The position numbers were made by a program. From assembly GCF_057098645.1 (NCBI RefSeq), contig NZ_CM169472.1: a stretch of 64,000 nt of DNA; one strand, written 5' to 3'. Within the stretch, counting starts at the first letter, position 1, and each line of letters begins with the position of its first letter. Below, piece by piece: positions 45,101 to 48,100 of the stretch.

Positions 45101-48100
45101 CATATGCAGCGATGGCAAAATCAAATCATCTTCTCGCGTTGCAGTAAACGATGGCAGCGACTGCACAATGTCCGCCACAGTTTCTGTTTTAATATCTTCC
45201 TGTGTTGCATCTTTCTGTACCGGTAACGCAACACCGACTGGCTGAGGAAAGGCTTTACCATCGGTTTCCGCTACCGATTCAACTTTCGGCTCTGCTGGTA
45301 AATTATCACCTGGTATGCAGTAACGAATTTTACCGTTCTGGTTTACGCGAATCAGACGACCTTTGCTGATTGCCATTGCCAGCGTTGAAGCAACTTTGCG
45401 GGATGTTGTACCGAACAGCGTAGCCAGTTCATCCGCCGTTTGTGGTCCGCGTTGTTCAATCGTCGCGGTTAAATCGCACTCTGAGATTTTCGCTTCTGTT
45501 GCCGTGGTGGTTTCTTCTGGCGCTGGCTGTTCCTGCTGAACGTTGTTATCAGCCACACGCCAGGTGTATACGCTTTTATCAACGAAGCCAGCCTTTTTCA
45601 GTTCCCACAGCTCGTTCAGTACTTCTTCACGACTGATATCAAGTCGCGCAGCCAGCTCTACCGACGTGGCTTTTCCCATCGCTTTCAGTGCGTCAAAAAC
45701 AGTCTCCATAAATTTCCTCCCGGTAAAAAATCACTTCTCAACTCAAACAAAACCAGCCGCTTTCCGGCGTTCATATTCCTGTTTCAGCAACTCAATTGGC
45801 GTTGGCCCCGACGGGCGTTTGGGGGCCGCCAGTTGTCGCCGGACTGGCGGAACGCTCAGGCCGTTACTAACATGCTTTGCCCATTTCGTCAGTTGCCGTT
45901 CTGCAAGCCGTTTTAATTCCCCTTCGGTCATCTGGCGCTCAATCCCCTTTGAACGCATCTCGAGGCAAATGTGATACAGCACAGGCTGAGACCACGGGTA
46001 CTTATCACTTCCGTCGTATCGCCAGGACTCATTGCGCCAGCGGCGGTACTCCTCCATCACAGCATCCACCGTCAGACCGAATGGATTGGCTCCGCTTTTC
46101 GAAATCAGTGCCACAAACTCAGCCAGGTCCGGAGGCCATGTTTCACCCGCCCGGCAGCGGTCCATGCACTGGCGGCAGACCTGCCGGATTTGCTGCTCAG
46201 TCATCGCGCCAATCTGTGCAATCCAGAGCTTCGATGGTGCGGCCCCGTTCTTCTGGGTCCAGCGGTTCGAATAAACCTCCCCCATGAGTTCCCACAGCTT
46301 CCAGGCCGTTTCCGTCGCTGATAAATCCGTTTTCACGTTCCCACTGCTCACGTGCTGCCCGAATTTCCTGAACTGCCCGTGATGCGGTGCCACCTGGTGC
46401 TGCTGCATGGTTTACCCCTTTGCTGACTGGTTTAACCTGCGCCCTGACGTGATTTACGTGACGGGCGAATTTCTGCTCCCACTGAATCTGCGTAAACACT
46501 TTCCCCTCCGCTGCCCAGTAGTCCCGGAAGGCGGCAAGTTCAGCAGGTGTAAATTCTGTCTCCGGCAAAGCCATCCCCCACAACGCAGCCCGTCGTCGAA
46601 AATCCCGTGACGGATACCAGCTATCGCTCATCGGGAATTTTCCGATGGGTTCGCTCAGGCCATACAGGAATACAGGGGGGGCTGCCTGTAACGACAAAAC
46701 TTCCTGCTCACTGGTCGGAGCACTCTCGCGTGCGTTATGTGTGGGGTTTAGATCTTTGGGTTCCTTTGGGTTCCGTGATCCGTTTTTGGGTGTCTTTGAT
46801 GGAAAATTTGGGTGTCTTTGGTTATTTTCCATGCAGCTAAGAGTTCTGTTTTTGGGTCTGTTTTGTGCTGAAACATAACCATTTTCGGTACTGTTTTTAT
46901 TAACAGCACCAATTTTACCCACCTTTAAAGACTCCCGTTTTTGGGTGTATTCAGGCTCGGCAACACTTTCTTCTACACCGATAAGTCGGTACACCACAAT
47001 TTGCTTTGTTCTGCCTTTTCTCTCACCGGTATCAACAATTAACCCAATCTCCATCAGGTGTCGTAAGCTGTCCTGCACAGTCTTTTTGTTCAGTTCCGTT
47101 ACTTCTGCCAGTGCAGATACAGACGGGTATGCACACAAATCGGCACCGCACATATCAGCAAGCCAGGTCAATACTGACTTACTGGATGAACTGCCGGTTT
47201 TCACCTTTTTAGCCCATCGTAGTGCATCGATACTCATACGAACCCCTGGCAGACATTTGTTTATCTGCAAAGTAATATTGGTATTGCTGACGATACGCGT
47301 GCTTGAAAGCAATAGCTTTTTCTATAAGCTCGTCAGTCTCACGTTCCACAACAACTGGATCCGCAAAAAGCAGCCCGGACTCCACCACATCGCCATATTC
47401 TTTGTTTAACCCGGCGATCATGTACGTAATGCTTTTTCCGTCAGTAATTTCACAATACAATCTGAAATCGCTGATCCGGATAGCCTCCATAATTGCCGGA
47501 ATCAGCGCCGTGAATTTGTCACGCTTATCTCTGGTGTCGATAGCTTTCCAGCGTTCGAATATCTTCACCCGGTTAACGCCCAGCGCCCGTTGATCAACCT
47601 CGCCATCATTAAACGTGACGCGTTGAACATCGATGTTCGGGCGTTCTTTCAGAGCCCAGAATGCTTCCGTGATTAATATCGTCGCCTGCTCCTGTGTCAT
47701 TCCTGGTCGGCATACCCAGGTATCCAGAGCCTCACAAACCTGTTCAGTGGTGATTTTCATTGTTCAACCGCCCCGCCCGCTTTGCCTTACGATATTCGTC
47801 ATAAACTTTGGGGTCGTACTGAAGTTCCCCGCCGGATGCCTCTTGCAGGCGCATCGCGCGACCTTCAGGAACCAGTTCCCCCCATGCAGCAACGCTTGCC
47901 AGCCTAACTCCTGCGACATTGGCAAGCTTTGTTTTGCTGCCAAAAAACGCTATAGCATCAATTTTCAACATATCGAACCCCTTAGATTTTCCTAAGGAAA
48001 CTAGATCGTAGAGAAACCTAAGTCAAGAAAAATTAGAATTACCTAATATGAAAAACGAAACCTTCGGTGCTCGCCTCTTATACAGGCGAAAAAAATTAAA

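Follow-up and report, generated by a model that had tools for sequence, protein, structure and literature searches.

The DNA analysed here, hereafter the window, is a 64,000-nt stretch of NCBI RefSeq assembly GCF_057098645.1 (contig NZ_CM169472.1) that carries an Escherichia coli O145-type lambdoid prophage integrated at or next to ompW. On the minus strand of its replication region, a Cro-like gene, a CII-like/YdaT gene, an O-like initiator gene, a P-like helicase-loader gene (ending at 45743) and a DUF1627 gene follow one another (Table 1). A cluster of short direct repeats occupies positions 46750-46953 within the O-like gene, and the end of this gene overlaps the P-like reading frame. In this study, we characterized the repeats, the two proteins and their overlap, and we consider it likely that 46750-46953 is the replication origin of the prophage, situated in the linker of its own initiator gene, and that the O/P overlap of about 212 nt is real.

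Table 1. Features of the replication region, in window coordinates and in gene order
Feature	Position	Strand	Remarks
DicA/CI-like repressor gene	48048..48455	+	135 residues, HTH_3 only; divergent; dicA in PPompW records
cro-like gene	47744..47971	-	Pfam P22_Cro
CII-like/YdaT gene	47209..47760	-	Pfam YdaT_toxin; phrog_163 'CII-like transcriptional activator'
O-like replication initiator gene	46197..47237	-	346 residues, intact open reading frame; RefSeq WP_000020557.1
N-terminal winged-helix domain coding region	46968..47237	-	residues ~1-90; presumed iteron reader
Iteron A	46935..46945	-	exact CCCAAAAACGG; read T-Q-K-R; position-homologous copy in all relatives
AT-rich stretch between iterons B and A	46857..46934		best 40-mer 46890-46933, 70% AT
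Iteron B	46846..46856	-	CCCAAAAACAG, one mismatch; read P-K-N-R
Iteron C	46802..46812	-	A/T-flipped variant CCCAAATTTTC; read H-P-N-F
Iteron D	46780..46790	-	exact CCCAAAAACGG; read P-K-N-G; last iteron of the array
Two GGAACC repeats	46759..46774	-	46769-46774 and 46759-46764, 10-bp period; second conserved element past the last iteron
Module junction	46750..46757		winged-helix/iteron/GGAACC module upstream (gene direction); DnaT-like/tail/P module downstream
DnaT C-terminal-like domain coding region	46428..46658	-	O residues 194-270; PF17948, 61 bits (cut-off 25)
Shine-Dalgarno-like AAAGGGG	46415..46421	-	6 nt before ATG 46408; AAGGGGG in most variants (5 nt)
P-like helicase-loader gene	45743..46408	-	proposed full length 221 residues from ATG 46408
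O/P out-of-frame overlap	46197..46408	-	212 nt; 140 nt if P starts at GTG 46336
Conserved O-tail motif ASRAVQEIRAAREQWERE	46332..46385	-	encoded over the variable N-terminus of P

Anatomy of the repeat array

The original prediction placed at least five degenerate direct repeats in the O-like coding region, and such repeats are indeed present. The 16-mer TTTTTGGGTGTCTTTG matches five times with at most three mismatches (at 46753, 46783, 46805, 46849 and 46938, all on the plus strand), compared to an expectation of 0.88; none of 100 shuffled sequences reached five. The core TTTGGGT occurs six times on one strand within 46755-46946, with four other copies, on both strands, in the remainder of the 64 kb, and the probability that any 192-nt stretch of the window would contain six cores by chance is about 3e-9. 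The array extends slightly past 46940, the end proposed before. On the coding (minus) strand the cores read CCCAAA and are located at gene positions 293, 382, 426, 448, 468 and 478, in reading frames 1, 0, 2, 0, 2 and 0 and with spacings of 89, 44, 22, 20 and 10 nt. Since they use all three frames and are unevenly spaced, the cores do not represent tandem codon repeats. A simple tandem repeat was also considered and rejected, as Tandem Repeats Finder detected only a 10-bp GGAACC doublet.

The view that iterons are embedded in the O-like gene, as in ori-lambda, was supported by comparison with related sequences, but both the repeat unit and its count had to be corrected. The actual repeat is not the 16-mer but an 11-12 bp motif, CCCAAAAACGG(G) when read on the coding strand, and iteron-type copies (A-D in Table 1) account for four of the six cores, the two leftmost being part of a different element, GGAACC. 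Iterons A and D are the only exact CCCAAAAACGG matches in the 64 kb. In iteron B, the core CCCAAAAA was invariant in 34 variants with the same module, whereas its flanks were variable. Iteron C is of an A/T-flipped type that was also found at the homologous place in relatives, in the forms CCCAATTTTGG, CCCGTTTTTTCC and ACCGAAATTCCC. The arms of the iterons are complementary over only 3-4 bp (CCC...GGG, ACCG...CGGT) around an A-tract, and folding of 46740-46960 as single-stranded DNA is weak (z = -2.0).

Occurrence of the motif in related initiators

Nine relatives, including sequences from Klebsiella, Edwardsiella, Enterobacter, a Ralstonia-annotated protein cluster and metagenomes, were picked by protein similarity alone (L168-L171, L292 and L295-L298; 35-75% identity). 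The motif (A/C)CC(A/G)AAAACGG was present in all nine at the same linker position, with 2-5 copies in each when G-variants such as ACCGAAAACGG were counted. Four of these (Klebsiella, Edwardsiella and two metagenomic contigs), picked via the N-terminal 160 residues, showed 41-62% identity (65-66% for the Klebsiella relative by local alignment) and carried two to four exact copies of (A/T)CCC(A/G)AAAACGG(G/T/A) in the same place. The other five protein-selected relatives agreed with this pattern, and some of the initiators, at 35-43% identity, were located beside DnaB-like helicase genes instead of P. In addition, A/T-flipped or inverted copies occupied fixed places in the arrays of some protein-selected relatives, and the dominant form in L297 and L298 was ACCGAAAACGGT, whose 4-bp arms are self-complementary.

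A reciprocal scan was carried out in a viral-contig collection, requiring two exact motifs 10-40 nt apart. It yielded at least 120 loci, of which 80 were kept. The motif pair fell inside an open reading frame (ORF) in all 80, and the ORF product had a BLASTP match to the N-terminal domain of the window protein in 72 of them (32-75% identity). Among the remaining eight are ORFs truncated at contig ends, another HTH_36 protein and two Phage_rep_O-type initiators. A DnaT-like C-terminus was found in only 35 of the 80 loci, indicating that the motif tracks the N-terminal domain and not the whole gene. The 68 distinct ORFs contained 2-7 copies each (305 direct and 1 inverted), and motif density was 5.2 per kb within these ORFs compared to 0.027 per kb in their flanks.

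Two loci that were found solely through the CCCAAAAACGG pair encode initiators of the lambda-O family. In L185 (3406-3460), the Phage_rep_O (lambda-O) N-terminal domain was confirmed by Pfam, and in L215 (2317-2371) the same domain was judged from a sequence similar to L185. From these sequences, the same type of site seems to be used by both HTH_36-type and lambda-O initiator families.

Selection at the DNA level

A repeated peptide, such as PKNG or TQKR in a low-complexity linker, could leave repeats in the DNA as a by-product, with no DNA function. Several observations fit this explanation and thus count against an origin: the array is coding, 81% of the copies in relatives are in the PKNG frame, PKNG-like motifs are visible in an alignment of the linkers, and the commonest spacings in relatives (24, 18, 36 and 45 nt) are multiples of three that mostly preserve one frame, as would be expected of a tandem peptide. 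However, PKNG peptides were encoded by CCC-AAA-AAC in 171 of 172 copies, whereas 8.5% would be expected from codon usage of the same ORFs, and when the two copies per ORF that the search itself required were discarded, 52 of 53 PKNG peptides still had exactly these codons. The motif was read in all three frames (248:40:17), so that 19% of the copies lie outside the PKNG frame and encode different peptides, e.g., TQKR and VPKT; the uneven, three-frame arrangement in the window is equally at odds with a repeated peptide. Taken together, the fixed codons, the reading in three frames and the existence of flipped and inverted copies imply that the DNA, not the peptide, is under selection, and we regard the by-product explanation as highly improbable.

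Variation among close relatives was also analyzed. All six CCCAAA cores were invariant in 34 distinct close variants, and 46753-46830 contained 2 variable sites in 78 nt, compared to 30 in 120 nt in the neighbouring stretch (p = 8e-6).

The GGAACC element and exchange of modules

Past the last iteron, the window contains two GGAACC repeats, which are read in two frames. In relatives, the corresponding region has the form ...CGGGACAC(G/A)GAACC, followed by 1-4 short (G/T/A)AACC repeats with a period of 9-13 bp. Density of GAACC in 78 related ORFs was 20-30 per kb in the 60 nt past the last iteron versus 0.6-1.3 per kb elsewhere, an enrichment of about 20-30 fold. The element was detected in L170, L171, L292 and L295-L298 and in approximately 54 of the 68 motif-selected ORFs. 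It could be part of an unwinding or loading region.

The repeat region ends at a module junction. Thirty loci share the DnaT-like/tail/P module with the window at 92-95% identity; homology begins at gene positions 481-488, exactly where the repeat region ends, and these loci are wholly divergent upstream of that point. Three unrelated N-terminal modules were found fused at this junction, each with its own repeat cluster within about 150 nt: three copies of GATAAGGC in L022 (1867-1910), three copies of GTCACGACG plus four further upstream in L063 (1462-1772), and three direct copies and one inverted copy of TGTTCAAAC in L062 (1797-1895). Such an arrangement would be expected if DNA-binding domains are transferred together with their own sites. 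We propose two modules: an exchangeable specificity module made up of the winged helix, the iterons and the GGAACC repeats, and a second one consisting of the DnaT-like domain, the O tail and P.

A further sequence, L004 (PP818812.1, 'Actinobacillus phage vB_Apl-pPE4'), showed 92% DNA identity to the window over the O C-terminus and P. Its deposited host, Actinobacillus pleuropneumoniae, looks odd, as gene order in this phage is E. coli Rac-like.

Domain organization of the O-like initiator

The O-like protein consists of an N-terminal winged helix, the iteron-bearing linker, a DnaT-like C-terminal domain and a tail. It matched PHROG family phrog_1032 'replication initiation protein' with an E value of 9e-91, and 'O-like' families with E values of 4e-12 to 1e-7. 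An AlphaFold model of the N-terminal 97 residues, based on a 17-sequence alignment, was a winged helix with topology H-H-H-H-E-E and a predicted local distance difference test score of 86. A Foldseek search with this model retrieved generic winged-helix DNA binders, including N-terminal domains of plasmid Rep proteins, and no specific initiator match. The Pfam HTH_36 profile scored 20.9 bits, which is below the 25-bit cut-off, and relatives carry this domain (PF13730). The DnaT-like domain matched E. coli DnaT structures (6aep, 4ou6, 2ru8 and 9zbt) with E values of 1e-16 to 2e-19. The tail motif, at residues 285-302, is common to O proteins with differing upstream domains in L292, L293 and L294.

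The O/P overlap and the start of P

According to the original prediction, the O-like and P-like ORFs overlap by about 210 nt in different frames, which was attributed to a mis-called boundary or a frameshift in one of them. The extent of the overlap was borne out by the longest ORF in the P frame. The attribution was not: both ORFs are open in all 56 distinct variants, the O ORF is uninterrupted in the window, and the overlap recurs in three other loci, two of them from named genera (215 nt in Enterobacter, 221 nt in a metagenomic phage and 113 nt in Symbiopectobacterium). Judged from these comparisons, the O/P overlap is genuine and neither gene contains a frameshift. The mis-called boundary is probably that of the short P in public annotations, which place its start at 46204 (RefSeq; 153 residues, 8-nt overlap) or 46165 (DDBJ records; 140 residues), and not that of the long ORF. 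Truncation of this kind would arise because gene callers avoid long overlaps, and P would then be short by 68 residues in RefSeq and phage records, a systematic annotation error.

Alignment of P with its homologues, as had been suggested to fix the true ends of the genes, suggests that P most likely starts at ATG 46408. Homologues of 212-223 residues from Enterobacter, Klebsiella, Salmonella and Symbiopectobacterium span the whole 221-residue ORF with 51-79% identity, and they have in common a conserved TAWxLWExMGEIYSNRWTQKNG block that precedes the start used in the annotation. This region is also covered by alignments with lambda P and with two relatives of 224 and 252 residues. The P product matched Pfam PF06992 with 61.5 bits (cut-off 26), aligning from residue 56 of the 221-residue ORF, and phrog_109 'P-like helicase loader' with an E value of 8e-63, in which residues 19-220 fell on profile positions 22-235 of 236. 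ATG 46408 was invariant in the 56 variants and is preceded by a Shine-Dalgarno-like sequence, whereas no comparable site was found ahead of 46204.

Ratios of synonymous to nonsynonymous changes (S:N) among the variants showed a hand-over of selection inside the overlap. In 46334-46408, S:N was 7:7 in the O frame and 2:12 in the P frame; in 46205-46333, it was 7:31 in the O frame and 26:12 in the P frame, and the latter ratio was the same as in the remainder of P. Constraint therefore switches at approximately 46333 (P-frame p = 0.001, O-frame p = 0.035; 56 variants), and the last ~45 residues of O, which are unconstrained, overlie the conserved N-terminal region of P. In O proteins of other overlapping loci, a tail motif like AVRxIRAAREAWERE likewise lies over the variable N-terminus of P. 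The domains upstream differ: the O protein with the 221-nt overlap in the metagenomic phage has a lambda-O-like C-terminal domain, and that of Symbiopectobacterium is of DUF1376 type. In a lineage that is more distant, the O reading frame stops ~55 residues sooner and is joined to P through an ATGA junction, so that the O tail looks like an extension overprinted on the 5′ end of P.

Two alternatives for the start of P were weighed. If P began at ATG 46204, with the ORF upstream a chance open frame, the calls by RefSeq and two phage records would be correct, and the ATGACTGA arrangement at this site does resemble the ATGA junction of O and P in lambda. But in 46205-46333 the P frame is indistinguishable from bona fide P and the O frame is the unconstrained one, both profiles align upstream of M69, the full-length homologues share a conserved block there, and a Shine-Dalgarno sequence is lacking, which together make this start very unlikely. 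A start inside the overlap, at GTG 46336 (197 residues, 140-nt overlap) or ATG 46285 (180 residues, 89-nt overlap), is a more serious contender, albeit a doubtful one. It would account for several points that weigh against ATG 46408: constraint in the P frame begins only at ~46333, leaving the first 24 codons without it; one variant has ATG in place of GTG 46336; M42 does not vary across genera; and 180-181-residue forms are called by the NCBI Prokaryotic Genome Annotation Pipeline in Citrobacter and Klebsiella. On the other side, it is ATG 46408 that combines invariance with the best Shine-Dalgarno sequence, full-length relatives of similar length all begin with Met at the equivalent place, the start of the PHROG profile matches M1, and both P-frame synonymous changes and conserved residues are found upstream of M42.

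The sequence CCCAAAAAC was evaluated as a ribosomal slippery site and rejected, because it contains only five A's, no X XXY YYZ heptamer is present in any used frame, and passage from O to P would need a +1 shift. Possible single-chain forms were also noted in databases. phrog_15931 (482 positions, unknown function) matched O residues 161-345 as well as P residues 4-221, so that some phage genome may contain an entry in which O and P are fused or frameshifted. Three database proteins (P0099, P0152 and P0179) fuse the P domain with DUF1627 or DUF1376; these are probably frameshift or assembly artefacts, but could be real fusions.

AT-rich DNA and other origin signals

An AT-rich stretch beside the repeats, also part of the original prediction, was detected (Table 1); however, it is modest, is located within the array rather than next to it, and is not shared by relatives. 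GC content drops to 0.33-0.38 in 60-nt windows at 46840-46940. An AT content as high as that of 46890-46933 is reached by 4.3% of all 40-mers of the window, and the lambda tract is 80% AT. Among close variants, 46857-46934 was the most variable part of the array region, and it may be suggested only tentatively as a possible unwinding region. Scans of 45600-48600 for promoters and terminators found sites no more numerous than in shuffled sequences.

A candidate origin and its relation to known systems

In oriλ, O-binding iterons and an AT-rich tract lie in the central part of gene O, and two iterons plus the tract constitute the minimal unwinding unit (PMC7466680). We read the lambda iterons as four ATCCCTCAAAACGAGGGA-type units, one of which (iteron 3) has a CAAATTGG centre, with GACAC after the last. 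Similarities to the window are numerous. In both, repeats occur centrally in the initiator gene, within the linker that joins the DNA-binding N-terminal part to the C-terminal part; they are directly repeated, have an A-tract flanked by a C-rich and a G-rich arm (lambda TCCCTCAAAACGAGGGA, window CCCAAAAACGGG) and are spaced by about two helical turns; one copy has an AAATT centre; and a gene for a P-family helicase loader is located directly downstream, in an early operon of cro, cII-like gene, O and P. GACAC also occurs past the last iteron in relatives L295-L298, although the window itself has ATCAC. In contrast to lambda, the C-terminal domain of the window initiator is DnaT-like, its sites are 11-12 bp rather than imperfect inverted repeats of 18-19 bp, the last iteron is not flanked by a distinct AT-rich tract, GGAACC repeats form a second class, and the O/P overlap is ~212 nt long, compared to 4 nt. 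On comparison of the two sets of sites, the window motif looks like a shortened version of the lambda iteron design.

By analogy with oriλ, the winged helix of O would bind the direct 11-12 bp CCCAAAAACGG(G) sites, in which C-rich and G-rich arms surround an A-tract, and the four bound sites of the window, two of them exact, would assemble a bent nucleoprotein complex. Easily melted DNA nearby would then open, with 46857-46934 and/or the GGAACC repeats as candidates. The DnaT-like domain and tail of O, together with the P-like protein, would bring the host DnaB helicase, allowing the origin to fire. Leftward early transcription from the cro side, entering O through the cro-like and CII-like genes, is expected to traverse the site.

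Other systems combine some of these features. A domesticated chromosomal pair, DopC/DopE, likewise comprises two genes, one encoding an HTH_36-type N-terminus and a DnaT C-terminal motif and its neighbour a P domain, but no iterons were found at that locus by the authors (PMC5509034), in contrast to the clear array in the phage version described here. The Rac prophage, whose module is related, has been reported to contain an active origin, oriJ (PMC3945230). In Rac-SA53 (ydaU/ydaV), the DnaT-like/tail/P module has 92.8% nucleotide identity to that of the window and the same gene order, whereas the N-terminal half of the initiator is unrelated and is accompanied by TGTTCAAAC repeats. Plasmid iteron origins of the RepA/π type also pair a winged-helix initiator with an array of direct repeats. 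In plasmids the iterons do not lie within the rep gene, and DnaA boxes and a clear AT-rich region usually accompany them; in the window, repeats are coding and neither of these signals is seen.

Several observations weigh against an origin at 46750-46953. No DnaA box was found near the gene, the closest TTWTNCACA being more than 20 kb away, and no consistent AT-rich element was detected in 68 relatives, which showed a slight enrichment next to the array only. The array of the window is relatively degenerate, with two exact sites and one near-exact site; of the DNA-selected ORFs, 50 of 68 carry 4-7 copies. Pfam Phage_rep_O (PF04492) had no match to O at E <= 0.01, and an alignment of the O profile with lambda O by hhalign reached 12% probability, over the helix-turn-helix and wing only; what makes the protein 'O-like' is solely its position and architecture. 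A literature search for the motif retrieved unrelated primer sequences and nothing else, searches on iterons of this type of initiator yielded no relevant result, and, as noted, the DopC/DopE locus was described as lacking iterons. Finally, since motif and winged-helix domain are physically linked, their co-inheritance alone does not prove recognition.

These points leave room for a motif that is under selection as DNA and yet serves another purpose, such as binding of a different factor (the repressor, Cro, the CII-like protein or a host protein), autoregulation of O, transcription pausing, or recombination at the module junction, which is immediately adjacent to the array. Physical linkage could by itself be enough for motif and domain to be inherited together, and neither an AT-rich element nor a DnaA box is there to decide in favor of an origin. 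Against such a role, the motif follows the winged-helix domain even when its neighbours differ (P versus DnaB-like helicase, and other regulators), its position, copy number and A-tract design parallel the O-binding iterons of lambda, and different repeats accompany the unrelated initiator N-termini found at this junction. We therefore consider a non-origin function unlikely, although not to the same degree as the peptide by-product, and favor a replication origin at 46750-46953.

The principle is that of a textbook lambdoid origin; it is the description of the motif that was not found in literature searches. We lean, by a modest margin of confidence, towards a broader interpretation, in which (A/C)CC(A/G)AAAACGG followed by GAACC repeats represents a widespread, previously undescribed iteron class of HTH_36-type phage initiators across many genera, and apparently of some true lambda-O-family initiators too, such that origins could be predicted in very many prophages. 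The same interpretation regards the overlap of O tail and P N-terminus as a conserved coupling module by which initiator and loader would stay matched when N-terminal specificity modules are exchanged. If confirmed, the motif would provide a sequence rule for finding origins in enterobacterial prophages of a very common class. The results also show how lambdoid mosaics are organized, with recombination, at a fixed junction, between a specificity module and a helicase-recruitment module. Our general understanding of lambdoid replication is unchanged by these findings.

The prophage and its capacity to replicate

Positions 45700-48500 were 100% identical to several O145:H28 genomes and to 'PPompW' phage records, and the window was collinear with strain RM13514 over 39407-64000 (99.8%). 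The replication region had matches in approximately half of complete E. coli genomes.

Head and lysis genes had been described as gone from this prophage, which is largely right for this window. Relative to RM13514, ~11 kb from the capsid gene to the tape-measure gene are missing, with a deletion junction near 35468, and a lysis cassette was not found between Q/tRNAs and the terminase genes. However, terminase, distal tail, int, xis and exo genes remain. The same deletion junction was not found in any complete genome among the matches listed.

In situ replication on induction, as suggested originally, is plausible. Given the intact ORFs of int and xis, excision is no less likely. The 135-residue repressor has no S24 peptidase (self-cleavage) domain according to Pfam, and RecA-mediated self-cleavage, as in lambda CI, is therefore not expected. 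A prophage that is crippled for particle formation may still replicate if derepressed, and such replication would bear on local gene amplification (the paa adhesin gene, effectors) and on interference with other phages.

Additional differences from RM13514 and accessory genes were noted. Cargo between the replication genes and the Q region (43358-44116 and neighbours, 42867-44900) includes, per RM13514 annotation, the adhesin gene paa/adfO, hokD and a frameshifted fimbrial pseudogene. A 1.45-kb insertion near 37957-39407 (ORF 38185-39381), between the terminase small-subunit gene and tRNA-Arg, corresponds by annotation in other O145 genomes to ISEc20 of the IS110 family. Two segments of ~1.3 kb each, at 7966-9267 and 25936-27268, are absent from RM13514 and are probably insertion sequence elements.

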